64,000 nt of DNA from an uncultured delta proteobacterium (GCA_963794325.1 CAWCDG010000002.1:96001-160000); one strand, 5' to 3'. Counted from the first letter of the stretch, positions 1 through 42,463 are shown. The notes: generated by a model not told the origin, from the sequence alone. Program-made: numbers and translations.

Positions 1-180
1 GTCGTAGTCGTCAGTCACGGCGGCGTGATGCGAGCGGTGTGGGCGCACGTCACCGGCAAATGGGAAAACGCGCACGTGCCGCCGAACTGCGGCATCGTCG
101 TAATCGAGCATCATGGCGGCCGCTACCGCGAGCCCGAAGTTATATTCGGAGAAACTCCGGCAAGCGAAACCGGCGGCTAG
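1..180 (+). CDS. Histidine phosphatase (phosphoglycerate mutase) family protein, 3' part only
   Basis: Manual frame-1 translation VVVVSHGGVMRAVWAHVTGKWENAHVPPNCGIVVIE...ETGG*; the SHGG and PNCG motifs are typical of the family C-terminus; the start lies outside the window. Confidence 0.75.
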   Translation, partial: VVVVSHGGVMRAVWAHVTGKWENAHVPPNCGIVVIEHHGGRYREPEVIFGETPASETGG

Positions 181-238
181 TATTCAGTTAATTGAATGAC
201 ATCGCGATCGAAAAATCCCGTTCCACGGAACGGCGGCG
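117..238 (+). repeat. Direct repeat copy 1: 64-bp phosphatase 3' end (117-180) plus downstream segment shared with copy 2
   Basis: cggccgctaccgcgagcccgaagttatattcggagaaactccggcaagcgaaaccggcggctag|tattcagttaattgaatgacatcgc; recurs at 2141 and 3952. Confidence 0.95.
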
Positions 239-308
239 CTCGGCTCGAACAAAAATCCGGACGTATTTCTATTTCTGGCGATCCTCTCTCACCCTCAAAG
301 CCTTGTCG

Positions 309-1178
309 ATGACGAGTAACCGTAAGCGTGCGGTCGCCGCGGCGATGGGCGCTGCTGCAGCGCTTGGCCTGACAGTCGATGACGCGATCGTGCTCCAGGA
401 GTCGAACAAGCTCGCTGTGCGCCTGCTGCCGTGCGACGTTCTTGCTCGGGTCGCGGAGGAGCGCATCAAGGGCTGGGCGGAGTTCGAAGTCGAGCTTGCT
501 TTACGCCTCGCGGAAACCGGGAGTCCTGTAGCAGCGCTTGAGCCTCGGGTCGCGCCCGGCGCCTACGTGCGTGACGGCTTTGTGGTCACGCTGTGGACCT
601 ACTACGAACCTGTGCCGTCCCGAGAGTTCGCGTCAGCCGACTACGCGCACGCGCTCGAACGGCTGCATGACTGCATGCGGCAGATCGACTTCCCGACACC
701 GCACTTTACGGATCGAATCACCGACGCCCAACGGCTTATCGGAAGCCGCGACCAGACTCCAGAACTCGTTGACGCGGACCGTGAGCTTCTCAGCAACACG
801 TTACGAAGTCTGCGGCAGGCGATCAGCGCTCGCGGGCGCCCCGAACAACTCCTGCACGGCGAGCCACACCCGGGCAACGTGCTCAGGACGAAGAAGGGCC
901 TGCTGTTCATAGACCTCGAGACCTGTTGCCGCGGCCCCGTCGAGTTCGATCTCGCCTACGTGCCCGAAGAGGTGAGCGTGCTCTACCGGAGCACCGATCA
1001 ACAGCTGCTCCGCGAATGCCGGGTCCTGATGCTTGCGATGGTCGCAGCATGGCGCTGGGATCGAAACGACCAATTCCCCAACGGGCTACAAGCAGCGCGA
1101 GAATTCGTCAGCGAGCTCCGGGCGGCACTGTCGGGCGCACCCTTCTCGACGCACTTGCCGCGCTGGACTGACACCTGA
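309..1178 (+). CDS. Aminoglycoside phosphotransferase/kinase-like (APH) family protein
   Basis: HGEPHPGN and IDLE kinase motifs; ATG at 309 preferred to the ORF-track start inside the repeat. Confidence 0.8.
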   Translation: MTSNRKRAVAAAMGAAAALGLTVDDAIVLQESNKLAVRLLPCDVLARVAEERIKGWAEFEVELALRLAETGSPVAALEPRVAPGAYVRDGFVVTLWTYYEPVPSREFASADYAHALERLHDCMRQIDFPTPHFTDRITDAQRLIGSRDQTPELVDADRELLSNTLRSLRQAISARGRPEQLLHGEPHPGNVLRTKKGLLFIDLETCCRGPVEFDLAYVPEEVSVLYRSTDQQLLRECRVLMLAMVAAWRWDRNDQFPNGLQAAREFVSELRAALSGAPFSTHLPRWTDT

Positions 1179-1189
1179 ATCGCTGGTGG

Positions 1190-1523
1190 ACGCGAGTTCA
1201 CGTGTCTTTCGCACCTCCCCGAATGTTATCGATCCGCGCATCAGCACTGGGAGTTCCTCGGTGGCATTGTAGTAGGCGAGATTGAAGAAAAACTCAGCTC
1301 CGGCAACACAGGCGTCTGCGGCATCGCGCGCGAGAAGAAAGATCGAGTCGCTGAGTCCGTACCGTGCGTTCCAGACCCCACGCTGGAGGTATTTTGCCAG
1401 CGAATCCTCAGTCGATAGGATGTGTGCGACATCTGACAAGTGCCCAAGCGCGCGCCCAGCGCCTGGCTCGGTTGCCGCGATCGAGAATCCGAGAATGTCA
1501 GCATAGAAGACGGCCGTTTTCAT
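1190..1523 (-). pseudogene. Truncated class III nucleotide-cyclase-like protein
   Basis: FYADILGF, LSDSI and MRGSITFG motifs; the frame then runs into antisense APH sequence, so the C-terminus is missing. Confidence 0.5.
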
Positions 1524-1619
1524 CGTCTTGACCATTTTGGTCCAAAAGCACTAATATGGTCAATGTCTCGCAAACGAACGGGTGCACTGGCGAGAACGGA
1601 AAAGGCCATGGGCACAATT

Positions 1620-1862
1620 ATGAAACATGTGAGGCTCGCGGAAGCCAAAGCCAAGTTGTCGGAGCTGGTTGAGGAAGTCCGGCGCGAGAGGAATCCGATA
1701 GTTATCCAGAAGCGGGACACGCCGGCGGCTGTACTGGTCGAGCCGGAGCGCTTTCGCCATCTTCAAGAAAGTGAAGATCGCTTGATGGCGCTTCAGCTCC
1801 GCGAGGCGTTGAAGGGCAAGAAGTACCCTTTGCGCAAAGTGCTCGCTGAACTTGAAAAGTGA
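1620..1862 (+). CDS. Phd/YefM family antitoxin
   Basis: MKHVRLAEAKAKLSELVEEV...PIVIQKRDTPAAVLV; GTGA overlap with the toxin. Confidence 0.85.
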   Translation: MKHVRLAEAKAKLSELVEEVRRERNPIVIQKRDTPAAVLVEPERFRHLQESEDRLMALQLREALKGKKYPLRKVLAELEK

Positions 1863-2137
1863 CCTTCGATGTTGAGCTTTCCGAGCAAGCCAAAACATTG
1901 CTCGAAGAACTTCATCGGGACGATCGGAGAAGCTCTCGTGAATTGGCCTTACTCCTGCTGCGCCTTGAAAAAGATCCACGCCCGAATGGAAGTCGTGAGC
2001 TTGCAGTTCAGGCTGGCCCAGAGCGGAAGCGGTCGCTGGAAGAGAGGGTCTGGGACATAGCGAATTTCCGCATCCTGTACCGACTCAATGGCGCCAAGCG
2101 CCTGATCGAAGTCGGCGTTGTCAGGCGCGTCCGCTGA
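1859..2137 (+). CDS. RelE/ParE family toxin
   Basis: 92 aa, N-terminal FDVELSEQAK, DPRPNGS, C-terminal FRILYRL...IEVGVVR; coupled to the Phd antitoxin. Confidence 0.75.
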   Translation: MTFDVELSEQAKTLLEELHRDDRRSSRELALLLLRLEKDPRPNGSRELAVQAGPERKRSLEERVWDIANFRILYRLNGAKRLIEVGVVRRVR

Positions 2138-2140
2138 TGA

Positions 2141-2260
2141 CGGCCGCTACCGCGATCCCGAAGTTATATTCGGAGAAACCCCAGCGACCGAAACCGGCGG
2201 CTAGTATTCAGTTAATTGAATGACATCGCATCGAAAAATCCCGTGCTGACGAACGGCGGC
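2141..2260 (+). repeat. Direct repeat copy 2 of the phosphatase 3' end plus downstream segment
   Basis: 2141-2204 matches 117-180 at 59/64 nt by manual count; followed by the same tattcagttaattgaatgacatcgc...aaaaatcccg. Confidence 0.95.
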
Positions 2261-2402
2261 AGACCCTCGCTGAGAGAAAGCGGAGCATCGCTGCCCCGAT
2301 CGAGCCTTCTCAAGAAAAGAGTCGGCTGCGAGAACTCCTGTCGGCCGCGCCCGATCTTGGCGCCGATCGTAGTTCCATCCTCGTCTGGCTCGGGCTGAAA
2401 AC

Positions 2403-2906
2403 CTAGTTCGGACTCCATGCTCTCCGGCGAGCGAGCCATCTCGGCACATTGGCACAGTAAGCCTCGAATTGCGCACCAAACATCCCACGCAAGGTCGGTT
2501 CTTCGTACGCGATTACGACGACATGAGTGAACGCCCAGAAGAGAAGTGCCCAGACGAATACGCGCATATCTGCGAAGAAGATTGCCTCGCCTGAAAGAAT
2601 AACGAAAAGCGCGACATAGATCGGATTTCTCACATGCCGGTAGAAACCCGTAACGACCAGACGTGTCGGCGGCGCGATCGGGGCGGGCGTGCCAAGACCG
2701 TCCCATGCGAAACGTGCGAACGAACTGAGCAACGGATAGAGCCCGATCACTATCATCACCGCGCCGATCGAACGCGCGGACTGAGAATTGTTCAGCGCCG
2801 GATTCGTCTGCCACCGCGTGATCCACCACGGCACCAGTCCCACAACTGTTCCTGGCGCAATCACGAAAAAAAGCAGTGAACCCAATGAAGCCCAGACCCT
2901 GCGCAT
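2403..2906 (-). CDS. Isoprenylcysteine carboxylmethyltransferase/PEMT family membrane protein
   Basis: GLGTPAPIAPP, LVVTGFYRHVRNPIY, EEPTL...FGAQFEAYCANVPRW. Confidence 0.85.
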   Translation of the reverse strand: MRRVWASLGSLLFFVIAPGTVVGLVPWWITRWQTNPALNNSQSARSIGAVMIVIGLYPLLSSFARFAWDGLGTPAPIAPPTRLVVTGFYRHVRNPIYVALFVILSGEAIFFADMRVFVWALLFWAFTHVVVIAYEEPTLRGMFGAQFEAYCANVPRWLARRRAWSPN

Positions 2907-3090
2907 GAAATCGTCCTTCGAGGGCGCACGACATGCCTTGCCGCCGGCTGCTAGATCGTAGTCGATGTCGAATCCTCGTTCCAGCGATCCCCTCGACGCC
3001 GCCTTCGGCGACGAAACCGCCGCGACTGAGCCGCAGCGCGAGCCCGCCTATCTGTATCCGTCCTCTCGAACAAAAAGAGAGGAAAGAAAA

Positions 3091-3258
3091 ATGGAGAGGG
3101 ATGTAGATGTTCTAGCAGAAATGACGGGTGTACGAGAGTACGGCGACGGTGAGCCGGTGGAATTGGCTCGCCGCCAAGATAATGGCCGGTTGATCATCCG
3201 CGCGTACAATGAAGGCGGATACTGCACCACTGTGATTGATTTTCTAGATTTTGGTTGA
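3091..3258 (+). CDS. Small hypothetical protein (55 aa)
   Basis: ATG 3091 with upstream GAGAGGA RBS, within ORF 2965..3258. Confidence 0.45.
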   Translation: MERDVDVLAEMTGVREYGDGEPVELARRQDNGRLIIRAYNEGGYCTTVIDFLDFG

Positions 3259-3296
3259 GCGGCTCCGGCAGGTCCAAACAATGGAGTCCTGAAAAC

Positions 3297-3824
3297 ATGA
3301 AACACAGGGCGCATCGGCGAAAACGGCGGCAGCGGTGGCAGCGTAGTCAAATTGAGAGGCTGACCGATGAGATTAACAAATGCCTGAATGCGGAATTGTG
3401 GTATGCAGCCTTGGTGCTTGTCCTAATACTGCCGGATATTTGCGTATCCTTAGAACTGTCCAAGGGCAATACAAACGGAGACCTATACGAAAAGTGGTGC
3501 AAAAAATGGCTAGCGAATGAGTACGGATCACTTGCAAAAGACTTGTACTATCTTCGTTGCGGACTCGCACATGAGGCGAAATCTCAGCATCGGGCCATCA
3601 AATCCAAACGCATCTTTTTCACTTTGGGATCAAAGGACGCCCATATGCGGCAACACAAGGAAGCCTTCACTCTGGACTTGAATACGTTCGCCGGAGACAT
3701 GACCGATGCTGTTAAAGCGTGGTACGTAAAACAAGCACAGAATCAGAATGTCCAAAGGAATATTGGTGCGGTCATTCAATACTATCCTTCGTTGGACTTC
3801 CTCAATGTGCGTGCGATTGGATAA
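3297..3824 (+). CDS. Hypothetical helical protein with HEPN-like Rx4H motif
   Basis: AT-richer ORF; ALVLVLILPDIC...YYLRCGLAH; GGAG upstream of ATG 3297. Confidence 0.6.
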   Translation: MKHRAHRRKRRQRWQRSQIERLTDEINKCLNAELWYAALVLVLILPDICVSLELSKGNTNGDLYEKWCKKWLANEYGSLAKDLYYLRCGLAHEAKSQHRAIKSKRIFFTLGSKDAHMRQHKEAFTLDLNTFAGDMTDAVKAWYVKQAQNQNVQRNIGAVIQYYPSLDFLNVRAIG

Positions 3825-3825
3825 G

Positions 3826-3858
3826 CGAAAGGCCGAACCCTCGCGAGTCCGGCCTTTC
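3826..3858 (+). terminator. Hairpin downstream of the HEPN-like gene
   Basis: gaaaggccg...cggcctttc inverted repeat; a further T-tract follows near 3899. Confidence 0.4.
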
Positions 3859-3951
3859 TAGGTCAAGGTCAGGCCGCCTGTGGGCTAATTGCTCGGCCTT
3901 TTTTTCTTGTCAGCTTGATCGACTTTTTTCTTTCGGAACCGATCATCATAG

Positions 3952-4015
3952 CGGCCGCTACCGCGAGCCCGAAGTTGTATTCGGAGAAACTCCGGCTAGC
4001 GAATCCGGCGGCTAG
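3952..4015 (+). repeat. Direct repeat copy 3 of the phosphatase 3' end; its CTAG overlaps the recO stop
   Basis: 61/64 identical to 117-180 by manual count. Confidence 0.95.
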
Positions 4016-4797
4016 CCTTCAGACCGACCCGCGCCCGGCAGAACTGAATCGAGAAATTCCTGGCTCCGCAGCCGGCGATCTATGATCGAGCTGATGAAAC
4101 GCGCGAGCGCCAGAGCGCCGTCCGGACCCGCAGCTTCCGATCCCGGCGAGTCGCTCATCGGCAGCACACCGAGCCTTGCAAGAATTGCGGCACCTCTGCT
4201 CGACATCTTGATTGCGCCTTCCGCCAATGACGGCCGGCATTTCGCGCATACGATGCCGCCGCGCGACACGACGAAATACACTGTCGTGGTCGCGCCGTTG
4301 TCGCCGTTGATGGTCGCGCAGATTCGGCAGCGGGTGAACTCGAGTCCGAATCCTGCCCATCCCAGCAGACGCATTTCGAACGCCTGCCGCAGAGCCGCGT
4401 CCGCGAAGCGCGTGCTGAGCGCGCCGAGTCCTTCCGACAGCACTCGGTATGCCTCCGCCGCCTCGCTCTCCTCGGTCGTGAGCGCATCGGTGAGTTCGAG
4501 CATGTAGCTGCCGAGCGCAATCTTCGCGAGGTCGTCGTCGATCACATGCTGTGTCAGGTCGGCCGCTTCGGCGCGTGTGATAAACACCAACTGCCCGTGC
4601 GGTCTCCGGCGAAAGTGCAGGACCACGTGCGAGAACGGTTCGAGCTTGCGCTCGAAGCGATGCCGCGATGCTTTGGCGCCTTTCGCGATCCCGCTGAGCT
4701 TGCCGGCGTGGAGCGTCAGTAGCGTGACGATTCGATCCGACTCGGCGTAATCGCGCGCACGGAGCACGATCGCCGGGGTTGATTCTTCGATCGGCAT
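4012..4797 (-). CDS. recO: DNA repair protein RecO
   Basis: AIVLRARDYAESDRIVTLLT...GIAKGAKASRHRF...LEPF; CxxC...CxxC zinc finger. Confidence 0.95.
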   Translation of the reverse strand: MPIEESTPAIVLRARDYAESDRIVTLLTLHAGKLSGIAKGAKASRHRFERKLEPFSHVVLHFRRRPHGQLVFITRAEAADLTQHVIDDDLAKIALGSYMLELTDALTTEESEAAEAYRVLSEGLGALSTRFADAALRQAFEMRLLGWAGFGLEFTRCRICATINGDNGATTTVYFVVSRGGIVCAKCRPSLAEGAIKMSSRGAAILARLGVLPMSDSPGSEAAGPDGALALARFISSIIDRRLRSQEFLDSVLPGAGRSEG

Positions 4798-20958: not shown

Positions 20959-21011
20959 GGGCCTGCAGCGGGAATCGTAACATTCCGGGCGATCCATGTC
21001 AGGGTGGGGAA

Positions 21012-21487
21012 GGGAAATCACTTATTTAAAGTGAAACCCTTCGCGGGTTTCACGCTTCCGCGGCAGGGGTGACCCCTGCACCCAGTGATGAAGCGCAAAA
21101 TGGCGCGGACGCCATTTTGCTCGGCGGTTCTTTTTCTTGTGTCATTCAGAGCGAAGCGAAGAATCCCGGATCCTTCTTTGAGTGATCCTGATGGGCGGTT
21201 TGCGGCCTCCCAATACCTCGCCCGTTTACGGGAGAAAAGGCCGGCGGGCCGCCGGTAGGTGAGGGTGCTGCGATTCGAGCACAGTCCGTGCGGTCCGGTG
21301 CTGCGTTCAAAAGGAGCGCTGCGCGATTTTCAGAAACCGGAACCGGCTTCGCGCGCGCGAAGCTGTCCGGAGGCCAGAAGCCATTTCCTGCCGTCGCTAA
21401 TGCTCCCGTCGTGATGATGACACAAAAAAGTGAAACGGCGGGAGTCGTGATGATGCAAACAACCTAACCCCTAACCCCTTCCCATAG
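21012..21487 (+). repeat. ~475-bp composite repeat element, copy 1 (contains multi-hairpin core A at 21031-21087)
   Basis: Near-identical to 25451-25925; I saw only one indel. Confidence 0.95.
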
Positions 21488-21564
21488 GTGACTATGTTGG
21501 GAGTGACACTATGGCGTTGGCGCTACGTTGTGGATGACAGGTGGTTTTGATTTTGCTCACGAAA

Positions 21565-21993
21565 TTAGATGATAGTTGTAGGCGCTGTTGTTGATATAGA
21601 CAGGTCTCTAAACTTCGCATCAAATTGGTATGTACAGAGCACTCTCTCTTTGTTGCAGCGTTTTGTAACGAACGAATATATACAGAAGCCACTATTTCTG
21701 TTGAAGGCTGATGGGCATCCATCTACCGGATGGAAACGCACGCCGAGACTCACCGGCTTTGTGGTTCGCCCGTTCGGCGCAATCACCACAACATCTGGCG
21801 GATAGCCGCGTTTCGGCAGGGCTCTGCTCTCCGTAATCTGGCCGAATTGGAAGTTTGTTGTAGAGGCAGAAAGTCGTAGACACTTGGCTAACAGTTGCGG
21901 GCGATAGACATTGTTGATGAACGAAAAGTCGATGATGCACGATTCCGCGTTGGGAATGCAGTTTGGTGGCAAGCTATGAAACTTGAAATACAA
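21565..21993 (-). CDS. Hypothetical protein (AT-rich; may be the frameshifted continuation of 21974..22285)
   Basis: 142-aa ORF in low-GC DNA; no family recognised. Confidence 0.3.
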   Translation of the reverse strand: MYFKFHSLPPNCIPNAESCIIDFSFINNVYRPQLLAKCLRLSASTTNFQFGQITESRALPKRGYPPDVVVIAPNGRTTKPVSLGVRFHPVDGCPSAFNRNSGFCIYSFVTKRCNKERVLCTYQFDAKFRDLSISTTAPTTII

Positions 21994-22285
21994 AGAGAGA
22001 AACGGCGCACCAGCTTTTCGAGGTGATACACCAGCTTTCGTGGGCTTGATCCTGATTGTACTCGGCTGCCGTTTGGCGTGGCTTTGCAGTCGCTACGACC
22101 GATGGCGCGGCGTGCGTTGGCTGTTCTGTAGCTACGGAATGGTTATATGAGGGCTCGCCTTCACTCTTTTCGGCTATCACTGGTGGTGATTTTGGGGCGG
22201 CTTGGGCGCTTACGTTTTGTCCGACGTTTAGAAGTAATGCCGACGCTATCAGGATCAACGCGAACCAGGTGCTTGAGTGCTTCAT
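21974..22285 (-). CDS. Hypothetical secreted protein
   Basis: Signal peptide MKHSSTWFALILIASALLL...VSA followed by a P/A-rich linker. Confidence 0.45.
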   Translation of the reverse strand: MKHSSTWFALILIASALLLNVGQNVSAQAAPKSPPVIAEKSEGEPSYNHSVATEQPTHAAPSVVATAKPRQTAAEYNQDQAHESWCITSKSWCAVSLFVFQVS

Positions 22286-22419
22286 GGAACGTCAGCGGAT
22301 GGAGTAAGATGGGTTTCGCTTTTGGCATAGTACTACTCTTCGCGGGAACGGCAATCGGAATTGTCCGCCTCTATCCACAATCAGGTGACTGGCATTGTCT
22401 GCCTGAGGCTTCCGCCAGC

Positions 22420-22762
22420 GGCTGCTGGCCTCCGGACAGCTTAGCGCAAGCGAAGCCGGTTCCGGTTTCTGAAATGGCGCAGCGGTCATTCTGAACGCTG
22501 GGAACGAATTGCACGGACTCTGCTCGAATCGCAGAACCCTCACCTACCGGCGGCTGAGCCCGCCGGCCTCCTCTCGCGTAAAGCAACGGGCGAGGTAATT
22601 TCCCAGCCCCCATCCTCCCCAGAACCTGAGAGCGAAAGGTTGTCCTCAACATTTCGCGCTTCTCACTTTTCACTTTTTCACTGGGTGCAGGGGTCACCCC
22701 TGCCGAAGGAAGCGTGAAACCCACCGCGGGTTTCACATTTGATAAAGTGATTTCCCCTTCCC
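22420..22762 (-). repeat. Diverged inverted copy of the composite element
   Basis: Reverse complement has core A, then ccgccggtaggtgaggg..tgcgattcgagca and ttcagaaaccggaaccggcttcgc..agctgtccggaggccag, in the same order as copy 1. Confidence 0.9.
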
Positions 22763-22911
22763 ACCGTGCCATCTGATGGCGAAGGCGGCGGGGCAGGGCG
22801 ATGACGCAAATCACCTAACCTCTAACCCCTTCCCGAGCGGGAAGGGGAACCGGATTGAGGGAGTGATCCCTTTTCTCACTCCTCGCGGAAAGGGGGGCCG
22901 GATTGAAAGGC

Positions 22912-25020
22912 TTACTTTTGGCGGCTGGCGACGCCGAAGTAGTCACCGCCTTTGGCTTGGGCGTCGTCGGTGCCCCATTCGCGGGTGAGCTCAACTTTTT
23001 GCATTAGTGGGATGTGCTTTGAACAGTGGATGAATGCTTCGTCCACCGTGACCATGACCCAGCGTTCGAGGACTCCGGCCGGGCTGTTCATGATGGCTGG
23101 GTCGTGGAGCACGGTTTCTCCGGCCGGGTGATCTTTCATCTGGCGGAGGAACTCATCGTGCTCAACAATGTGCGCGATGCCGTTGACATGGAGGCCGATT
23201 CGGTCCTTGGTGAAATCGATGAACATGAGGCCGATATGCGGATTCTCGGAAATGTTGCCCATACTCGACATCACGCCGTTGCCGTGAAACTCGGGATAGG
23301 CGATGGTGCGATCATCGAGCACTTTGACAAAGTTGGGGTGGCCGGCGCGGAACGAGGCGTCGGTGTTCCTTTCGCATCAGCGGTTCCGACGAACATCATT
23401 TCCTGGCGGGCGATGAACGAGCGCATCGCGGAATTGAGATGATCGAGCACCTGATGCTTGTAGAAGGCGAGCGCCTGCAGGCTCTTGCCGAACTTGGCCT
23501 GCAACTCATGCTCGCCTTCCGAGCCGGGGAGCGGGCTCTCTTCCGCTCCGTCGGCGGCCTGACCGCCGCAGGCCCATGCGACGACTTCGCGCACCATCGA
23601 TTCGCAGGAACCGCAGGCCGAGCCGGCGCGGGTCGCCTCTCTAACGGCCTCGAAGGTGCGCAGCCCGCTATTGACGCAATCGATGAGCGCGCCCTTGTTG
23701 ACGCTCTGGCAGTTGCAGATTTGCGCATCGAGAGGGATCTGATCGATAGTAACCCGTTTGGGCGGACCTCCGCCGATATCGAAGAGCAGATTGATTCGCT
23801 CTTCGGGCAATGCCGCGTTGCTGTCGAAGGCATGCAGCAGGGCGGCGGCCTTGCTCACGTCGCCGAGCAGGATACCGCCGATCAATTGGTCGTCGCGGAT
23901 GATCAGCTTCTGGTAAGTCCCGCGCCGCGGTTCTGCGAACTGGACAACTTCGTCGCGCTCGATCGACGGGCTCAATCAGTCCCATCGAGGCCAGCTCGAC
24001 GCCCGCCACTTTGAGTCGAGTGGCGATCTTCGGGAGCCGTGGTAAAGCGGCCTTGGAATTGGCTCCGGTGATATGATCGGCGAGCACCTTGGCTTGCTCC
24101 CATATCGGGCGCAACGAGGCCGTAGGTCAGTCCGCGATGCTGGACGCATTCGCCGACTGCGTAAATGCGCGGATCGTCAACGGTGCGCATCTGGTTGTTG
24201 ACCACGATCGCGCGCTCGACGGTGAGGCCAGCATTGAGTGGCGATTTCGGCATTCGGCCTTGATACCGGTGGCGAAGACCACCAGATCGCATTCGAGGGT
24301 CTCGCCATTCTTGAACTGAAGTCCGCTGACGCGCTCGTCGCCGAGGACCGCGAGGGTGTCGGCGCCGAGATGAACGCGGATGCCCATTTTTCTCGACCAT
24401 CGAGCCGCAGGATGGCGCCGGCGGCAGGGTCGAGCTGTTGATTCATCAGATGGGTCGAGCGATGGATGACGTGGACTATCGAGGCCGAGACTGTGCAATC
24501 CCGTGCGCGCATTCGAGCCCGAGAAGACCGCCGCCGATCACCACCGCGCGCTTCTTCCCGGTGGCGTATTCGGCCATGCGGTGGCAATCGTCGAGCGAGC
24601 GAAACCCGAAGATGCCGGGCTTCATGCAGCCGTCGGCTCAACGTCAACCCCGGCAGCGGCGGAATGAAAGAGCGGCTGCCGGTCGCGATGATAAGCTGGT
24701 CGTACGGCTCTTCGCGAGCCGTCGGCGCCGATCACGCGGCGGGCGAAGCGCAAGATACGCGATGGCGCGAACGCCGGCGTGCAGGCGGATGGCATTTTGC
24801 TCGTACCATGCGAGCGGATTGAGAACGATTTCGCTCGGCCTGTCGCGATCCGTCGAGAACCGCGGAGAGCATGATGCGGTTGTAGTTGCCGAAAGGCTCG
24901 GCGCCGAACATCGCGATGTTGAACATGCTCGGCGCCGCCGCGCGCGAGAATCTCCTCGACGGTCCGCGCGCCCGCCATGCCGTTGCCGATGACGACCAGA
25001 TTGCGTTTGCCGCTCATCAT
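22912..25020 (-). pseudogene. NirB/NasB-like FAD/NAD(P)H oxidoreductase + BFD [2Fe-2S] + PNPOx-like FMN-binding domain; many frameshifts
   Basis: Fragments: LVVIGNGMAG, NYNRIMLS, IYAVGECVQH, ATRLKVAGV, ICNCQSV..AGSACGSC, PGSEGEHELQ, YPEFHGNGVMSSMGNISENPHIGL, EAFIHCSKHIP. Confidence 0.8.
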
Positions 25021-25366
25021 TCGAACTCCACGAAGCCGACGTCGATCATCACTTTGGCGGCGAGCCCTCGGGCGCCGCAATCATCAACTCGACGACGCTG
25101 CCGGGCAGGCAGTCATCGATGATCGCAAGCGGCACGTGAATCCCGCTTTTGGGACCGCACGGGAACAACCGGATCGATTTGCCGTCGCGCTGGAGCGCGA
25201 CGTAAAGAAATTCGGAGGTCGGGTTGCCGATTCGTCAATAGATGAATTGGGCGCGCTTGTCGGGCGGGACGGTATAGACCGCCTTGGGCTCGAGGCTAAC
25301 CGGTACTTCGAGCCCGCGGGCTTCGAACGCGAACATCCCAGTGAAGAATTTATGGGTCTCGTGCAT
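25017..25366 (-). pseudogene. Small conserved protein of the type found upstream of NirB-like flavoproteins; internal TGA and a 3' frameshift
   Basis: Manual translation MHETHKFFTGMFAFEARG...YTVPPDKRAQFIY*RIGN...RDGKSIRLFPCGPKSGIHVPLAI...DVGFVEFE; AAGGGG RBS; ATGA overlap with the downstream gene; absent from the ORF track. Confidence 0.65.
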
Positions 25367-25450
25367 CGATGCCCCTTTATTCGAGAATCTGAATCATCAA
25401 CAGCGATTCTCACATACGCCGGACGAACTTCGGTGGCAAGGTGAGAGCAG

Positions 25451-25925
25451 GGGAAATCACTTATTTAAAGTGAAACCCTTCGCGGGTTTCACGCTTCCGC
25501 GGCAGGGGTGACCCCTGCACCCAGTGAGAAGCGCAAAATGGCGCGGACGCCATTTTGCTCGGCGGTTCTTTTTCTTGTGTCATTCAGAGCGAAGCGAAGA
25601 ATCCCGGATCCTTCTTTGAGTGATCCTGATGGGCGGTTTGCGGCCTCCCAATACCTCGCCCGTTTACGGGAGAAAAGGCCGGCGGGCCGCCGGTAGGTGA
25701 GGGTGCTGCGATTCGAGCACAGTCCGTGCGGTCCGGTGCTGCGTTCAAAAGGAGCGCTGCGCGATTTTCAGAAACCGGAACCGGCTTCGCGCGCGCGAAG
25801 CTGTCCGGAGGCCAGAAGCCATTTCCTGCCGTCGCTAATGCTCCCGTCGTGATGATGACACAAAAAAGTGAAACGGCGGGAGTCGTGATGATGCAAACAA
25901 CCTAACCCCTAACCCCTTCCCATAG
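25451..25925 (+). repeat. ~475-bp composite repeat element, copy 2
   Basis: Direct repeat of 21012-21487. Confidence 0.95.
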
Positions 25926-26059
25926 TGGGAAGGGGAACCGGATTGATGGAGTAACCTCTTCCCGGGGAAGGGGACTGGATTAAGAAGGGCCTAGCCGCTT
26001 AAGGGTTAGCGCTTGCGGCCGCTGCGGTGGCCTTCTAGCCTCGCGATGATGGGGGCGCG

Positions 26060-26470
26060 TTGGATAAGATGAAGGCGCGCGATTTGATTGGGCGCGCGTC
26101 GGCGTGGATCGCGGAGTTGCGGGCGCGGCTTCCGTTGGGGCGGCGGGGGGAGAGAGCCGCGGAAAAGTATTTGCGGCGGTGTGGGTTTCGGATCGTCAAG
26201 CGGAATTTTCGGGCGGCGGGGGCGGAGATCGATATTGTTGCGATGGACGGCGAGACGCTGGTGTTTGTTGAGGTGAAGACGCGGCGGAGTCGTGATGCTG
26301 GGGCGCCGGAGGAAGCCGTCGATGAGCGCAAGCAGAAGCAGATACGGCGCGCGGCGGGGATTTTTGCGACGCGGTATCGCGCGGACGAGGTCACGATGCG
26401 CTTCGATGTAATCGCGGTTGACGCATCGGGCGAGCGGCTGGAGATTGAACTGCTGAGGAACGCATTCTGA
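26060..26470 (+). CDS. yraN: YraN (UPF0102) PD-(D/E)xK nuclease family protein
   Basis: LGRRGERAA, EIDIVA..LVFVEVKTR, RFDVIAV. Confidence 0.92.
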   Translation: MDKMKARDLIGRASAWIAELRARLPLGRRGERAAEKYLRRCGFRIVKRNFRAAGAEIDIVAMDGETLVFVEVKTRRSRDAGAPEEAVDERKQKQIRRAAGIFATRYRADEVTMRFDVIAVDASGERLEIELLRNAF

Positions 26471-26561
26471 GACAAAAGCGTGAAGCGGCTGGCGTCGTGA
26501 CGATGCAAACAACCTAACCCCTAACCCCTTCCCGAGCGGGAAGGGGGACCGGATAAAAAGG

Positions 26562-26743
26562 TGAATGCTGGATATCAAGCTGATTCGTGTTCTTGAAGAA
26601 CAGAGCCCTAACCCCTGGCCCCTTCCCCGGAGGGGAAGGGGATTTGAGGTAACGACACCGTCATGTCCTATCCCCCTCGCCCCCTTTCCCGCGGGAAGGG
26701 GGAACAGAAGGATTCTGAATGCTGGATATCAAGCTGATTCGTG
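26562..26743 (+). mobile_element. 126-bp palindrome cassette flanked by a 28-bp direct duplication of the serS start
   Basis: tgaatgctggatatcaagctgattcgtg at 26562-26589 and 26716-26743; a related cassette lies at ~56982-57180. Confidence 0.75.
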
Positions 26744-28038
26744 AACGGCCGGATTTCGTGAAGGGCGAGCTCGCTAAGAGAGGGGTCGATCCGGCGGAGG
26801 TTGATCGGCTGCTCGAGGCTGATCAGCGGCGGCGGAAGCTTCAGGGCGATGTTGATCAACTGCGCGCCGATCGGAAGAGGCGGGCGCGGGAAGTCGGCAA
26901 GTTGGCGCCTGAGGATCGTGCGGCCGAGATTGCGAAGATTCGCGCCGAGGAAGCGGATGAAGAGAAGCTCGCCAAGGGTGAGGCGATCGACGCCAGCAAT
27001 CCACTGCTTATCCTGGGGACCCAGCTTAACGAGGCGGAGAAAACGGTCGAGGAGTTGGCGCTGACGCTGCCTAACATTCCGCGGTCCTATGTTGTCGTGG
27101 GTAAGAGCGAGGCTGACAACCGGGTTATTAAGACTGAGGGGACGCCGATTGAGTTCACTTCGTTCAAGCCTCTCCCCCATTGGGAGCTTGGCGAGAAGCT
27201 TGGGATTATTGATTTCGATCGCGGGGTGAAACTGTCGGGGACTCGGTTCTATGTTCTGAGCGGAGCGGGAGCGCGGCTGCAGCGGGCGCTGATTAGCTGG
27301 ATGCTCGACGTCAAGATTCGAGAGCAGGGGTATCTGGAAATAATTCCGCCGCTGATGGTGAGTACTGAGACGGCGACCAGCACGGGGCATCTGCCGAAGA
27401 ACGCGGATACGATGTACCGCGACGCCGAAGACGATTTCTGGTTTATCCCGACGGCGGAGGTTCCGCTCACCAGTTTGCATCGTGAGGAGACGCTCGATGA
27501 AAGCAGTTTGCCGATCTACATGACCGCGTACACGCCCTGTTTCAGGCGCGAGAAGATGTCGGCGGGGCGCGATGTCAGAGGGATCAAGCGGGGGCATCAG
27601 TTTGACAAGGTCGAGATGGTCAAGCTGGTGCGTCCGGAAACGTCAGACGACGAATTTCATAAGATGGTGAATGATGCCGCGGAGATTTGCCGGCGGCTGA
27701 AGATTCCATATCGAGTCGTCGAGCTGTGCACCGCGGATCTGAGTTTCGCCAGCGCGGTTACTTATGATCTCGAAATGTGGGCGCCGGGGTGCGGCGAGTG
27801 GCTCGAAGTCAGCTCGGTTTCGAATTGCACGGACTTCCAGGCGCGTCGCGCGAAGATTCGTTTCAAGACGAAGGGTGGAAAGCCGGAACTGGTGCATACG
27901 CTGAATGGCTCGGGGCTGGCGCTGCCGCGCACGATGATCGCGGTGCTGGAGAATTATCAGAATGAAGATGGGAGTGTCACAATCCCCGAAGTTCTGCGGC
28001 CTTATATGGGCGGGGTGGAACGGATACACAAATCTTAA
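26719..28038 (+). CDS. serS: Serine--tRNA ligase
   Basis: MLDIKLIRE, IPTAEVPL, FRREK, HQFDKVE, EVSSVSNCTDFQARR, HTLNGSGLA. Confidence 0.98.
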   Translation: MLDIKLIRERPDFVKGELAKRGVDPAEVDRLLEADQRRRKLQGDVDQLRADRKRRAREVGKLAPEDRAAEIAKIRAEEADEEKLAKGEAIDASNPLLILGTQLNEAEKTVEELALTLPNIPRSYVVVGKSEADNRVIKTEGTPIEFTSFKPLPHWELGEKLGIIDFDRGVKLSGTRFYVLSGAGARLQRALISWMLDVKIREQGYLEIIPPLMVSTETATSTGHLPKNADTMYRDAEDDFWFIPTAEVPLTSLHREETLDESSLPIYMTAYTPCFRREKMSAGRDVRGIKRGHQFDKVEMVKLVRPETSDDEFHKMVNDAAEICRRLKIPYRVVELCTADLSFASAVTYDLEMWAPGCGEWLEVSSVSNCTDFQARRAKIRFKTKGGKPELVHTLNGSGLALPRTMIAVLENYQNEDGSVTIPEVLRPYMGGVERIHKS

Positions 28039-28364
28039 GTGAAACCCTTCGCGGGTTTCACGCTTCCGCGGCAGGGGTGACCCCTGCACCCAGTGTTAAG
28101 AAAATCGCGAAATGTTGAGGACAACCTTTAGCTCTTAGGGTCTGGGTGGAGGGTGCAGAGAATCACCGGCTGAAGCCGGTGCCACTTTGGGCAGTGATTT
28201 TGGTGGCACAGGCTTTAGCCTGTGATTTTCTGGTCCATGCAAATCCGGGAAAGAATCGCTCTGAATGTAGTACTGGGTGCAGGGGTCACCCCTGCCGCGG
28301 AAGCGTGAAACCCGCGAAGGGTTTCACATTTAATGAAGTGATTTCCCCTTCCTCACCCTGACAT
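28039..28364. repeat. Inverted pair of core A elements (28039-28095 +, 28272-28327 -) enclosing GTGG-type REPs
   Basis: gtgaaacccttcgcgggtttcac...cccagtg and its reverse complement; internal gtggcacaggctttagcctgtg. Confidence 0.9.
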
Positions 28365-28422
28365 CCGACAAAGGCCGGGGTTTCGCCTTAGATTCGCGGG
28401 TTCATCGCGATTTTTGGGCTAC

Positions 28423-34413: not shown

Positions 34414-34490
34414 GCGCCATTAGCTCAGTGGATTAGAGCGGATGACTACGGATCATCAGGTCGGGGGTTCAAGTCCCTCATGGCGCACCA
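34414..34490 (+). tRNA. tRNA-Arg(ACG)
   Basis: Acceptor GCGCCAT/ATGGCGC, anticodon arm GATGA-ctACGga-TCATC, GGTTCAAGTCC T-arm, encoded CCA. Confidence 0.97.
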
Positions 34491-34604
34491 AATTCCCCAT
34501 TGATTTCAAAGCTTCTGCGAATCGTGTGGCGACGCACCTGCGGATTATGAATGTCTTATGAATGAATTCGCGCAGGCCAAGAAAAGCCCGCGCGGTGTAC
34601 TCAT

Positions 34605-35267
34605 TCAAGATGCGCCACGTAATACAGCGAATGGAAATTGGATTAACCTGATCATCAGGTGCAATACCTGTTCCCATCTGCCGCCGTCGAGCTGCTCGGG
34701 GATAGTGATGGCACATTTGGCACCGCACACGGGGCAGGCGAAGGAAAGTGGGATAGTATTGTCGATCTTGAGGTCAACAACGAGCTTGCCGGACGTGATA
34801 TCCTCCTGCAAAGCGCCCTCATAGTGCGCTGTGATGGAGTCGCCCCACGGCCAGGTGCAGTGGTTGGAACCGAACGGATCAGTCGAGGTGCAGCCCCGAT
34901 CGAAGGTGAGTTCCCCAGTTGCATGCTGAATAGTGTTCACAGTGCGGTCGAAAGAAACACCGGTAAGATCGGCTTCCGCGTCGGTGGAGATTTTGAAAAT
35001 TACGCCACCGCTTTGGTCAGCGACCTGGACAGTACCCGTAACAGAGACTGCGGATAGTTCGCCGCTTTCGACAATGCCCAGGGGATTCATATCGGGGAGG
35101 GTGAAGTCTGTGAAGGTGGAGGGAACGATTGTAGCCGCGATCGGGCAAGCAGGCATGGCGAAGGTCAAGGTCTTGGTAATTTTGTCCTTGGGCGGTGCGC
35201 CATATATCGCCCCCGCCCACAGCAATGTAGCGCACAGTGCAACAAGCGTCAGGCTTCTTTTTCTCAT
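34605..35267 (-). CDS. Secreted Cys-containing beta-rich protein, possibly ML/NPC2-like
   Basis: Signal peptide MRKRSLTLVALCATLLWAGA; motifs MPACPI and CPVCGAKC. Confidence 0.6.
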   Translation of the reverse strand: MRKRSLTLVALCATLLWAGAIYGAPPKDKITKTLTFAMPACPIAATIVPSTFTDFTLPDMNPLGIVESGELSAVSVTGTVQVADQSGGVIFKISTDAEADLTGVSFDRTVNTIQHATGELTFDRGCTSTDPFGSNHCTWPWGDSITAHYEGALQEDITSGKLVVDLKIDNTIPLSFACPVCGAKCAITIPEQLDGGRWEQVLHLMIRLIQFPFAVLRGAS

Positions 35268-35433
35268 TATCTCTCCGCCCTTGGAATTCACGCGTGGATT
35301 TAGCCATGAACGATAGCACAGGCGTGAAGATTGTTAAAATGCAACGCTAAGGTCGGCGATATTGGGAGTTCTGGAGTCCTGTAATCTTTAGCCAGCAAAA
35401 GGTCCGCTTTGCCGGCCTCGGTCGCTGGCCAAG

Positions 35434-35469
35434 AAAAGCCCGCGCGGTTGATGTGCCCGCGCGGGCTTC
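35434..35469. terminator. Hairpin aagcccgcgcgg/ccgcgcgggctt; its left arm is duplicated at 34575-34596
   Basis: Perfect 12-bp inverted repeat. Confidence 0.5.
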
Positions 35470-35512
35470 ATCGGTGCGATCGAGGCCGAGCTAAGCAGCG
35501 GGCCGCCGCCAA

Positions 35513-35543
35513 GTCGGGGGTTCAAGTCCCTCATGGCGCACCA
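35513..35543 (+). repeat. tRNA-Arg 3'-end copy 2 (att-like)
   Basis: gtcgggggttcaagtccctcatggcgcacca, identical to the tRNA 3' end. Confidence 0.95.
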
Positions 35544-35833
35544 TTCTTTCTCCACAGACTTCGGAAATTGTCTCAGTCTGGGCTTGGTCCGGATCCTAAC
35601 CTCTCCTTGTCCGAGAGAGCTTTGCATAGCGCGGTTAGGCTTTCTTCCCCTCTCCCTGTTAGGGAGAGGATCAAGGTGAGGGTCCGATTACAGCGCGCCG
35701 TTTCGCGCGCGATTCAAGATTCTGCTCCTTGATTCTGTCCACCGAGGTTGCGCAAAGCTCTCTTGTCCGAGGTGAGCCGAAGAGTGAGTCGGACTATTTG
35801 TCGGTAATGCGGCGGTTTGCTAACTGAACGTCG

Positions 35834-36160
35834 ATGAACCCACGCCACGCCGCCGCTCTTGCGCTTGTGGGATGGTATCTGATGGTGCCGCCGAACAAGA
35901 GAGAAGATGCGCCGCTCAGTGAATGGACCATTTCGCGTTCTTATGATTCAGCAGAAGCGTGCCAATCTGCGCAGAACAAAAACAGAGATCAAGCCGCCGC
36001 GAAACAGAAGCAATACGACAGCATGACAGACCAGCAGCGACGTAATCTTGAACATAACCAACAGGCATTTGATCAAGAGACGAACGACAGAGATAACTTT
36101 GATGCGGCTTTTCAGTCAGCCTGTATCGCGAGCGACGATCCGCGACTCAAGGAAAAGTAG
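35834..36160 (+). CDS. Small hypothetical protein of the 'RHAAALALVGWYLMVPP...CIASDDPRLKEK' type
   Basis: 108-aa ORF, hydrophobic N-terminus, two Cys. Confidence 0.75.
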   Translation: MNPRHAAALALVGWYLMVPPNKREDAPLSEWTISRSYDSAEACQSAQNKNRDQAAAKQKQYDSMTDQQRRNLEHNQQAFDQETNDRDNFDAAFQSACIASDDPRLKEK

Positions 36161-36245
36161 GATGAGACCTTCACGGGATGCCGCGCTCGCGAGTTCTGAC
36201 GCTTTCTTTCGCGTATGGCTTAGATGAGATGGAGGTCAAAGAGCC

Positions 36246-36656
36246 TTGGGTGCGATAGTAACCGGAATACTCAGCGGCGTTCTCAGTAGCCTTCTCACCA
36301 TTTACCTGGCGCCGCGTGCGCGCCACGCCTTTTGGTCGCGAGAACGAATAACTGAACTAAGGCTCGCTACCTACGATAAGGTCAACGAGATCACCGCTGC
36401 TCTCTACGTGCGAGAACCCGCCGATTCGCGGCTTGTTCCGTTCGGAGTCGACGCTGACCTAAAGGAGCTACATACTTCCTTTATGACCGCACACAATGAG
36501 GTGAGGAATCGATTTTCCGAGACGGCTCTGCGCGCCTACGAGAAGCTCCAAGTCCTTGTCGAAGCGAACGGCATCGTCCGGGCGAACCGAACGTCCTATT
36601 CGGTAGCCAGAGATGCAGTCTTACGCCAGCTTCATAGCGAGTCGGTCGCCTTTTGA
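36246..36656 (+). CDS. Hypothetical protein with N-terminal TM anchor
   Basis: GGAGG RBS; AIVTGILSGVLSSLLTIYL followed by a helical domain. Confidence 0.6.
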   Translation: MGAIVTGILSGVLSSLLTIYLAPRARHAFWSRERITELRLATYDKVNEITAALYVREPADSRLVPFGVDADLKELHTSFMTAHNEVRNRFSETALRAYEKLQVLVEANGIVRANRTSYSVARDAVLRQLHSESVAF

Positions 36657-36769
36657 GCGGAACCGCGCGGTCACCTTCGGGGATCTCTGCCGCCCACCAC
36701 GCAATGCCCGTGCGCGTGAAACATGGCTTGCGCAACGAACTGGTGGTTACGGTCGGATACCGAGCGCTT

Positions 36770-37335
36770 ACGCTTCGCGAAAACGCCTTGAGAACATTGA
36801 CCGAAAGCGGCTGTGCGCAGCCGAAGTCATAAGCGGAATCTAACTACGGATCATCAGGTCGGGGGTTCAAGTCCCTCATGGCGCACCATCCTGTTTCGTT
36901 GAATTAAGATAAATCGGACTCGCCGTCTGATTCCCTCGCCCCACGTGGGGAGAGGGTTAGGGTCAGGGACATTTGTGCGGCGCGGATGTTTGTTGCTCCG
37001 TACATTCTCAATCCGGAATCCGAACGTGTTGTCCCTCACCCGCCACGCGAGGACGCGCGGCGGCCTCCCCCCTCGTGGGGGAGGCGAGATTCTTTGCCGC
37101 AGCGGTTCTGAATGACACGGAGACGCGTGTTGCTTGGATGCATCGGAATGTGCGGCGCAGGACAATTGCCGCACAGTTGTCCGCCGCCCTAACCCTCCTC
37201 CCATATGGAGGAGGGAACCGGATTGGTGCTCGACTGTGTGTGCGGGGTGGCGTAACGATCGAGCGACCGGAGGAGCATTCTCGAATGGCGGCTGTACTTG
37301 ATTTTTCGAAGGCTTATCGTGTTGACCATGGGCGA
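36770..37335 (+). repeat. Segmental repeat: tRNA 3' copy 3 (36843-36888), palindromes, ppk2 5' stub
   Basis: Colinear diverged match to 38583-39050. Confidence 0.9.
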
Positions 37336-37428
37336 GTAGCGCTCGTCCTCGCCGGCTCGGCTTGTGTTAGACGCGCCCGCGATATACACGGTGAGCATTC
37401 CGGTACGCATTCCGAGGAAGGAGCTTAC

Positions 37429-38431
37429 ATGCAGATGATTCGCGACCTCACTGGACGAGGTCGTCTTCTGACAGCGGTCATTGTGTTTCTAATGTTGATT
37501 TGCGGGACGCCGTCGCACGCATGGTGCGGAAGCGCGAACCTGTGGATTTCATTCAGCGGCACCGGCATCTATTCATACACATCAAAACGACTCAAGAAGA
37601 GCGGGATGCCGTCGCCAATTCATCTGAGCACGTTTAATTACGTTTCAGGACTTGCCTTCGACAAGTCCAATAACGTTTGGGTGGTTGTCGATAACAACGA
37701 GGTGGTGGAATTTACTGCCGCGCAACTCAAGAACCTGAAAAGCAATCCAAGCCCGACGCCCTCGGTGGTCATTACAGGTACGTCTACGTTCAAGAGTATC
37801 GATGGCTGCAACTTCGACCAGCACGGTAACCTCTGGGTGGTAGACGACTTCGGCCCCTCGATCGATCAGCTGTCCCAGGCACAGCTGGCTGCTGGCAGCG
37901 GAAATGTAACGCCCGCCATAGTCATCACATTCCGCTGATCTGGATGGCCCATCCTTTGTGACGTTCGACAAAGGCGGGAATGCGTGGGTAGATAGTTCGG
38001 GCAATGACAAGATAGCCGAATTCTCCGCCAGCCAACTGACGAGCGGCGGCAGCAAGCCGGCCAATGTAGTGCTGTCCGATGACGGCAGCGGTACCAGCCT
38101 TAACGAGCCAGGCGAGATCGCGTTCGACAAGAACGGCAACCTTTGGGTCCCAAGCTATGGCTCGAACACGGTCGTAAAGTATGCGAAGAGTCAACTGACC
38201 AGCTCCGGCAGCCCCGCTCCGACAGTGAAGTTGAGCAGCGCCATTTTTAACGGACCATGGGGCGCGGCATTCTCGAGCAAAGGCGGTCTGGCGATCGTGA
38301 ACTACAGCGACGGAACGATCGCCGCGTTCTCGTCCAAGCAATTGAAGGCAAGCGGCGCCCCTGTTCCAAAAGCCTCAGTGACGGGTAACGGTACCGACAG
38401 CTCCCAGATTGTCTTCGGGCCGGCTTCGTAG
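37429..38431 (+). CDS. Secreted NHL/SMP-30-like beta-propeller repeat protein (+1 frameshift near 37930)
   Basis: Signal peptide; repeated (G)LAFDKxGNLWV units across ORFs 36973..37938 and 37958..38431. Confidence 0.75.
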
Positions 38432-38582
38432 CGATACCGCGGGCCGGCACGTTCGCCAGGTTGAACTGAGCGCGCGGCACTGCCAAATCGTCATCAAGCG
38501 CGAGCGCGTCGGAACGAGCAGACGCTGTCGCTATGATCGAACTATGATCAAACGCTCGGCTGCTGGCGAATATTCAGGGCAT

Positions 38583-39050
38583 ACGCTTCGCGGAAAGTCT
38601 CGAAAATATTGACCGAAAGCAACCGAGAGCAAACGAAGTCATAGGCGGAATCTGATTACGGTCATCAGGTCGGCGGTTCAAGTCCCGCGTGGCGCACCAT
38701 TCCGTTTCGTTGAATTCAAGAACAAATGCGGCCTCGCCGTCTGATTCCCTCGGCCCAGGTGGGGAGAGGGTTAGGGTGAGGGACATCTCTGCGGCGCGGA
38801 TGTCCGTTGCGCCGCAGATTTGGAATTTTCGGAAATTTTGGTCCCTCACCCGCCGCGCGAGGACGCGCGGCGGCCTCTCCCCTCGACGGGCGAGGCAAGA
38901 TCCATTCGCCCTCCAAGGCTCGCGTTCGGATTGACCCAGTGGCTCGACTGTCGAATGCGGGGTGGTGTAACGATCGAGCGAACCGGAGGAGCATCTATCG
39001 ATGGCAGCTGTGTCTGATTTCTCGAAGCCGTACCGGGTTGACCATGGGCG
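38583..39050 (+). repeat. Segmental repeat: degenerate tRNA 3' copy 4 (~38654-38699), palindromes, ppk2 5' end
   Basis: ttacggtcatcaggtcggcggttcaagtcccgcgtggcgcacca with flanks shared with copy 3. Confidence 0.9.
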
Positions 39051-39195
39051 GAAGTTTCGGTTGAAGGATTTCGATCCTGGCGATACCAGCGGGGTCGAAT
39101 CGAAAAAGCATGGCGCAGAGGAATTGCCGCGCGGGATCGAGCGGCTGATCGAATTGCAGGACAAGCTCTACGCGCAGGAAGGCAATCATCACTGA
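39001..39195 (+). pseudogene. N-terminal fragment of a polyphosphate kinase 2 family protein
   Basis: YRVDHGRKFRLKDFDPGDT...LIELQDKLYAQ is typical of the PPK2 class III N-terminus; stops before Walker A. Confidence 0.75.
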
Positions 39196-39274
39196 CGCCG
39201 GCGCATCGGGCGCGGGCGAATCGCGCGAGTCGATTCCGTCGCTCGACCTGTTCGATTCATCGCGAGCGTGGAGG

Positions 39275-40408: not shown

Positions 40409-40474
40409 GACGGAATTTATTCCGTCGATCCTGATGTGGCGTGCTTTCCTTTGACGGAATAAATTCCGTCCTAC
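40405..40474. repeat. GTAG-type REP doublet (REPIN-like)
   Basis: gtaggacggaatttattccgtc...gacggaataaattccgtcctac; second copy at 44265. Confidence 0.85.
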
Positions 40475-40478
40475 TCGT

Positions 40479-42458: not shown

Positions 42459-42463
42459 ATCGT

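Follow-up and report, generated by a model that had tools for sequence, protein, structure and literature searches.

Integrons carry an IntI-type tyrosine recombinase gene adjoining an array of gene cassettes, clusters of attC sites lacking integron integrases (CALINs) have attC sites between their cassettes, and the cassettes are mostly co-oriented and promoterless. Integrase-less units of a different kind, the cis-mobilizable elements (CIMEs), have been reviewed for the ICESt1/ICESt3 family at the fda gene of Streptococcus thermophilus. According to the sections of the review devoted to them, these units are bounded by direct repeats holding the end of a protein gene and can be stacked in tandem with an internal att-like copy, the gene being kept intact by its proximal copy (PMC5704250). 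In homology-facilitated illegitimate recombination (HFIR) and the related single crossovers, foreign DNA becomes joined beside a homologous anchor, with joints of few-base microhomology and, in the experiments considered here, flanking duplications of 109-950 bp (PMC3240628). The H47 island of Escherichia coli is small, lacks an integrase and has long imperfect direct repeats that are hybrid after recombination (PMC3191183). Here we describe an array of two accessory units between a histidine phosphatase gene and recO that shares features with all of these systems. It is located in a 64,000-nt stretch of DNA from an uncultured delta proteobacterium (hereafter the window; G000:C2:96001-160000). 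The corresponding assembly, G000, comprises 4.45 Mb in 10 contigs and is 85% complete; it was compared with the genomes of 46 other species of the same genus within the Binataceae, a soil lineage. We propose, with a probability of about one half, that the array arose by homology-driven, integrase-free accretion at the phosphatase/recO junction, by an HFIR-like or single-crossover route.

Two islet units fill the interval between the two genes and each of them ends in a copy of the phosphatase tail. The order is tail 1, a unit with APH and Phd/ParE-like modules, tail 2, a methyltransferase unit, tail 3 and recO, and the genes of the array lie on both strands. Repeat search and alignment showed the three tails to be direct copies with start-to-start spacings of 2024 and 1811 nt. 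Tail 1 (103-187, plus strand) is the live end of the phosphatase gene, consisting of its last 78 nt with the stop codon TAG at 178-180 and 7 further nt. Tail 2 (2137-2211, plus strand) is an orphan without a gene body, as is tail 3 (3938-4022, plus strand), which has kept the native position against recO. When the whole assembly was searched with window positions 113-260, only these three places were found (E-values of 1.4e-72, 1.8e-42 and 1.0e-24), all other matches having E-values above 0.5. The repeat that the initial annotation had described as 64 bp long is real but longer. Tails 1 and 3 have about 85 nt in common (103-187 versus 3938-4022), namely the last 78 coding nt including the stop codon and 7 nt beyond it, which in relatives extend as far as the complement of the recO stop. 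Tails 1 and 2 have about 125 nt in common at 90% identity (113-237 versus 2137-2260), because both run on into the same foreign segment.

Within positions 117-180, tail 2 differs from tail 1 at five positions and tail 3 differs from tail 1 at three. Alignment confirmed the differences of 3-5 nt between the copies noted at first and the associated amino acid changes (E/D, S/T, I/V and T/S), the other changes being silent. The coordinates of the open reading frames (ORFs) likewise confirmed that tail 3 shares its CTAG with the recO stop: an ORF at 3719-4015 on the plus strand overlaps there with recO (4012-4797, minus strand; RecO_N and RecO_C matches), which is convergent with the phosphatase gene. 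The three tails differ from each other by 7-9%, and the adjoining APH module is just 2-6% away from its copies in other species. Several of the variant tail states are also polymorphic among relatives. Since the three tails are mutual nearest relatives among the 32 tails compared, any donors would have been very close kin. The inner ends of tails 2 and 3 are unlike each other in the alignment.

In the relatives this site is empty. The phosphatase gene lies directly against recO in all of the 29 genus loci that were read (28 of 28 if the unpublished genome G024 is left aside). Searching the genus with the 78-nt tail gave three copies in G000 and exactly one in 37 of the 46 other genomes (including G024); nine of the 46 had no copy at E≤0.001 and none had more than one. 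The view that convergent phosphatase and recO genes represent the empty site therefore stands, G000 alone having more than one tail in this interval, and the array is private to the G000 lineage among the genomes compared. No integrase-bearing element was encountered beside the tail in this limited set of relatives, a second tail copy being present in 0 of the 46 genomes. As to recO itself, the G000 gene is two residues longer than in most relatives and its stop overlaps the phosphatase stop (CTAG, window 4012-4022); in the relatives a few bases separate the two stops.

The first unit begins with a module, M1 (186-1192, plus strand), that consists of an APH-family kinase gene (ATG at 309, stop at 1178) and its own upstream region (186-340), 123 nt of which precede the gene. 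Homology with relatives ends sharply at 186 and at 1190-1192. The module is present at other loci in 15 other genomes of the genus (including G024) with 90-98% identity over at least 880 nt; the identity is 90.3% for the G024 copy and 92.4% for a partial copy in G012. For the 14 species in which both were measured, the APH module is 94-98% identical, compared to 79-92% for recO and moxR, and this suggests that it has recently been transferred from species to species. Following tail 2, the initial 51 nt of this upstream region recur (2210-2260, plus strand) with the same tail joint as in copy 1. The start of about 55 bp that the units were noted to share is a truncated form of the region natively upstream of the APH gene and not an arm-type site, because the corresponding segment continues leftwards into a conserved 70-nt stretch in 12 of 12 other Binataceae loci. 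G000 lacks this stretch. The 12 loci were obtained from a 17-mer scan of contigs that yielded 51 loci, 13 of them in Binataceae-type metagenome-assembled genomes (one of which, L072, was a chance match) and 38 being chance matches in unrelated taxa. To the eye the 70-nt stretch has a promoter-like pattern, but a consensus scan called no promoter in it. At the joint between tail and upstream region, TTCAG is followed by TTAATTG, and the native and foreign partners share only the two nucleotides AG.

The same APH module (97.8% identity) is inserted at the tail of the msrA gene (Pfam PMSR) in G033, between two copies of a 171-nt stretch of that tail. There, the APH upstream region is cut 19 nt further left than in G000, at a 5-nt microhomology (CGATC). 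The msrA-tail site is empty in G000, and G033 is the only genome of the genus with two full msrA-tail copies. These copies differ in 15 codons, all of them synonymously, with 14 of the 15 changes at third positions. Both msrA tails must therefore have evolved as working gene ends, that is, as donor and recipient alleles and not as a decayed in-situ duplication. In G062 a further copy of the module occupies an islet that is delimited by a 40-nt repeat and lies next to a tRNA-Leu gene. Across three species, the APH module is seen at three different duplication-flanked sites. In G018 the module lies 2.6 kb from an integrase gene and an HTH_17 gene, and no direct repeats were detected within 15 kb of this integrase-linked copy. 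Flanking duplications that combine a donor and a recipient allele, by which HFIR and single crossovers are recognised, are seen both in G000 (tails 7-9% apart) and in G033 (15 synonymous codons in msrA). The initial idea of cassettes that each arrive with the donor's allele of the phosphatase end is thereby made plausible, given tails that are 7-9% apart next to an APH module that is 2-6% apart, and the parallel in G033. A separate observation on the APH locus is that in G006 (L060 17283-19321), G034:C4 and G066:C27 an inserted FRG-domain gene (Pfam 1.3e-20) separates the APH gene from its upstream region. Along with this insert, 41 nt of the APH 5' end are duplicated, and the ATG reads ACG in the downstream copy.

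Searches of the whole assembly for tyrosine (PF00589) and serine (PF00239) recombinases gave nothing on contig C2 or near the array. The tyrosine recombinases of G000 are two Xer-sized genes and one broken integrase (at C4:603410, C5:307840 and C3:5157-5689), and the assembly has no serine recombinase. None of the larger ORFs in the array was recognised as an integration or transfer gene by Pfam or NCBIfam. attC sites follow the consensus RYYYAAC...GTTRRRY; a crude scan of positions 1-4300 for the R''...R' pattern gave 0 matches against a mean of 0.4 in shuffled sequence, no dedicated attC model being run, and Rfam gave 0 matches over the same positions. The statement that the array has neither a recombinase nor an attC site is upheld by these empty searches. 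The description of it as integron-like is not, in view of the lack of an integrase and of attC sites, the mixed gene orientation and the composite units. The locus does resemble integron cassette arrays and CALINs in that several small accessory units, a toxin-antitoxin pair among them, are lined up at one site, and in that new units may have entered beside a fixed point. It differs from them in having no IntI, no attC-like sites by the crude scan and genes in mixed orientation, and in that its units are parted by copies of coding sequence. Genes for Ku, ComEC and DprA are present in G000; ComEC and DprA are little informative because most control genomes also have them.

G000 contains two further islets, of 2.1-2.4 kb, at tRNA 3' ends, both with perfect repeats of 44-46 nt and one with an integrase relic. 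The last 46 nt of tRNA-Arg(ACG) (34414-34490) are perfectly repeated at 36843-36888, and the 2.4-kb islet so delimited (window 34414-36888) has four small ORFs, none of which matches a Pfam family or encodes an integrase. At G000:C2:290869-293107 (L121), the last 44 nt of tRNA-Lys(TTT) are perfectly repeated 2.1 kb downstream. This islet carries a glyoxalase-family gene and a 108-aa ORF that matches the C-terminal part of phage integrases alone (E 2.9e-4, below the cut-off). Moreover, one- or two-gene inserts in G000 and its relatives are surrounded by duplications of local sequence of 48, 95, 195 and 258 nt. The longest of these belongs to a HigB toxin/HTH_3 pair that lies between two methyltransferase genes (G000:C4:644671-646208; L125); the flanking copies are 95.7% identical and comprise a gene tail, a spacer and the start of the next gene. 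Recombinase-less inserts flanked by duplications are therefore common in this lineage, although their repeat lengths and targets vary. A pair of FtsX-type tails (C3:79373/80877) was also subjected to the codon-position test, but was dropped as evidence because its frame is doubtful; the pooled P value of the test nevertheless includes it.

Independent data on the array came from Logan contigs of four soil metagenome runs. These contigs support the junction of tail 1, the upstream region and APH (131-356) and the junction of unit B, as we call the methyltransferase unit, with tail 3 and recO (3658-4080) with 0-3 mismatches, the X1 contig across 3658-4080 having one mismatch. X1 also covers 2161-2304, which might mark an allele with unit B alone, and neither X1 nor X2 covers 1297-2160; missing cover is in itself no proof of absence. 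In a 518-nt contig of X2, position 1200 is joined to 2342 through a 2-nt filler, TG, with no shared bases (1 and 0 mismatches), and this variant lacks module M2 (the Phd/ParE-like module), tail 2 and the second upstream segment. This shows that the array has also been altered by illegitimate events inside units, and not just unit by unit. Empty-site joints with other letters occur in X1 and X4 and probably derive from other strains or species. The circular junctions that had been suggested as a check were not seen, no back-joining joint being listed in the Logan contigs, which drop rare forms.

Homology-driven import is favoured because the microhomology joints cut the module at host-specific places, because the tails are allelic and because recombinases are lacking; the same three points disfavour a dedicated site-specific system. 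Of the two mechanisms put forward in the initial annotation, the short-homology, recombinase-free option thus fits better than site-specific integration in trans. We infer that the enzymology would involve RecA and end joining, and the succession of events and the way in which the DNA entered the cell are proposed on the same footing. Each import would have come from a close relative that already had foreign genes behind its phosphatase gene. Along one route, the incoming DNA would have been held by a long homologous anchor in the phosphatase gene, its far end being joined illegitimately within the recipient's tail, as in HFIR with an overlapping anchor. Along the other, a circularised fragment would have entered by a Campbell-type single crossover in the tail of about 70-85 nt; a double crossover with its right arm in a tail copy would be equivalent. 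Either route would place the donor tail and the new genes next to the phosphatase gene and move the formerly live tail downstream as an orphan, and two rounds would yield the present array. Repeated events would thus account for the stacked units and the orphan tails, and also for the old joint of tail and upstream region that follows tail 2. Experimental counterparts are provided by E. coli, in which 56 of 60 clones recovered with a plasmid of one-sided homology had duplications. In the 14 of these clones that were sequenced, a single crossover had duplicated 109-950 bp of the homologous locus, and HFIR joints are given as typically having 3-10 bp of microhomology in the relevant sections of that work (PMC3240628). 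The joints seen here have 2 nt (AG) in G000 and 5 nt (CGATC) in G033, donors for the inner joints of tails 2 and 3 being unavailable. The events reported there are laboratory events involving plasmids or transforming DNA, and classical HFIR usually deletes recipient DNA and does not duplicate it (PMC3240628), whereas the tails of the array are shorter (68-85 nt) and were stacked twice in nature.

Several findings weigh against homology-driven accretion. The main difficulty is that copies 1 and 2 have an identical joint of tail and upstream region, yet to its left and right they are about 10% divergent. So large a divergence is not expected around a joint that was made once, and its repeated formation at one point would speak for site specificity. 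RecA acts poorly on substrates as short as these tails (68-85 nt) and with as much mismatch (7-9%), which hurts the single-crossover variant more than the anchored one. A donor allele with a single cassette was found neither in the genus genomes nor in the metagenome scans, in which the joint of tail and left segment and the lineage-specific core of the tail gave 0 and 0 matches. In contrast to the msrA tails, only 6 of the 12 changes in the phosphatase tails are at third positions, a bias that is not significant (P=0.18) in this small sample. Furthermore, the unassembled 15% of G000 could hold an integrase, and the two islets at tRNA 3' ends in the same genome are integrase-made.

The main alternative is CIME-type accretion, in which decayed or satellite elements, with the phosphatase tail as their att site, were stacked by a tyrosine integrase acting in trans from a related element that has since been lost. 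We consider this possible, though doubtful. The arrangement, which lies at a protein gene's 3' end and in which the copy on the element side makes the gene whole again, is exactly that of attL, unit, attI, unit and attR, an anatomy with which CIMEs and tandem accretion are described in the part of the review that deals with them (PMC5704250). The identical joint of tail and left segment in both units, despite a divergence of about 10%, is also more easily explained if related elements of one family each carry the joint within an att region. The islets at tRNA ends in the same genome, one of them with its integrase relic, fit this explanation as well, as do the vicinity of the G018 copy of the APH module to an integrase and an HTH_17 gene and the G062 islet with its 40-nt repeat beside tRNA-Leu. 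A precedent is the H47 island, which shows that integrase-less islands with long imperfect repeats can be moved by trans factors without homologous recombination (PMC3191183). However, Pfam, NCBIfam and the genome-wide recombinase searches revealed no integrase in the array and no remnant of genes for integration or transfer, and no cognate integrase-bearing element occupies the phosphatase tail in the 46 genus genomes. Unlike CIMEs, the units are composites of 1.7-2 kb, and the apparent arm is the APH upstream region, which is cut at microhomology and in 12 of 12 loci runs on into other sequence. Besides, the same module entered the msrA tail via a different cut point with microhomology, and the duplications found elsewhere are 41-258 nt long and take in intergenic DNA as well. 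As for H47, its recombination was shown to proceed via host factors without homologous recombination; the array bears a structural likeness to it only, and the account of H47 does not present its repeats as a tandemly arrayed gene tail (PMC3191183).

Two further explanations are far less probable than this. One is that the target was duplicated in situ, by a staggered cut or replication slippage during one or two insertions, with later decay of the copies. The mutual closeness of the three tails among the 32 compared and the presence of Ku would agree with such a history, which we nevertheless regard as very unlikely. The tails are 7-9% apart, against about 2% for the APH module next to them when compared with the G033 copy, the changes in the tails coincide with states that are polymorphic in relatives, and the inner ends of copies 2 and 3 are unlike. 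In the G033 parallel, moreover, all 15 changed codons are synonymous, and decay cannot give such a pattern. The other is that two strain haplotypes with different cassettes were concatenated during assembly, to which we attach hardly any credence. The junction of copy 2 (about 2100-2300) lacks independent confirmation, X1 and X2 have no cover at 1297-2160, the X2 form has no copy 2, and the frameshift in the phosphatase gene could mark consensus errors. On the other hand, the assembly has just 10 contigs for 4.45 Mb, an erroneous join would have had to rest on as short an overlap as 68-150 nt, short-read contigs confirm the junctions at 131-356 and 3658-4080 with 0-3 mismatches, and analogous duplications are present in other assemblies. 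Homology-driven accretion remains the explanation that we prefer.

The remaining parts of the array were analysed for gene content. Judged by sequence comparison, each cassette of the initial annotation is composite, with at least three separate modules across the array. A 9-nt filler (1193-1201) forms the joint between M1 and M2, and the metagenome variant breaks at 1200. Module M2 (1202-2135) is 94% identical to G007:C1:3593878-3594810, the homology stopping exactly at the toxin stop, and no direct repeats flank it in G007. It contains a small ORF on the minus strand, which starts at 1535 and has lost its natural end at the joint, a Phd antitoxin gene (1620-1862, plus strand; Pfam 1.6e-15) and a ParE/RelE-like ORF (1859-2137, plus strand). 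Unit B (2261-3937) contains a PEMT/ICMT-type methyltransferase gene (2403-2906, minus strand; Pfam 7.8e-11), a 97-aa ORF (2965-3258, plus strand), an ORF of 175-189 aa to which no family was assigned (3255/3297-3824, plus strand) and terminator-like hairpins (3881-3899). The G+C content at third codon positions in this unit is 0.55-0.64, compared to 0.71-0.85 in core genes, and no close relative of the unit was found among the genus genomes. With respect to the original gene labels, those of APH (Pfam 6.5e-16), Phd, PEMT/ICMT, recO and the phosphatase (His_Phos_1) were retained. The RelE label is weak, its ORF having only a ParE match with an E-value of 0.052, below the cut-off. Those of a cyclase stub and a HEPN-like gene found no support in Pfam, NCBIfam or sequences of the Protein Data Bank (PDB). 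The sole hint of the former is a weak Atlas lead to cyclase-like families, and Atlas gave nothing for the latter.

The target gene itself, the 3' part of which occupies window positions 1-180 on the plus strand, starts at G000:C2:95577 and spans C2:95577-96180. Near C2:95810, where the sequence is locally diverged, a net gain of one base (+1 frameshift) splits the gene into two frames, both of which have His_Phos_1 matches. The gene is uninterrupted in relatives, and the frameshift may reflect either a true pseudogene or a consensus error. In addition, 27 repeat pairs from a self-comparison of the genome were inspected. Most of the short pairs are dispersed hairpins resembling repetitive extragenic palindromes and are unrelated to the array. 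Two families of intergenic hairpin repeats, of about 40 nt and of 60-80 nt, occur at many loci, for example at G000:C4:1422582-1422620 and C6:14684-14726. Dense direct and inverted repeats of 50-330 nt were furthermore seen between the genes at about 20996-28368 and about 34445-50194 of the window.

Although close analogues of this locus exist in the literature, the tandem array with three alleles, the tracking of one module across species and the natural structural variant are additions to them. We tentatively raise the idea, which in this general form is rather unlikely, that the Binataceae have a recombinase-independent 'tail-swap' route by which modules of 1-2 kb pass from one gene end to another, in unrelated genes and different species. 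Each such move would install the donor's allele of a gene end and orphan the old end, and rows of orphan tails would be a fossil record of imports with the newest unit beside the gene. Recombinase-less accessory islets are common in uncultured bacteria and the route of their arrival is rarely documented. The present locus offers a worked example, with an empty site in dozens of relatives, three allelic tails and a natural variant of the array. Should an integrase be found, the array would represent the tandem accretion of CIMEs at the tail of a protein gene, in a lineage that is new at the phylum level, and would be an ordinary extension of known biology. If, however, homology-driven accretion is the true explanation, gene flow in this soil lineage would proceed without dedicated mobile-element machinery, and orphan gene tails could be used to date and order the imports.

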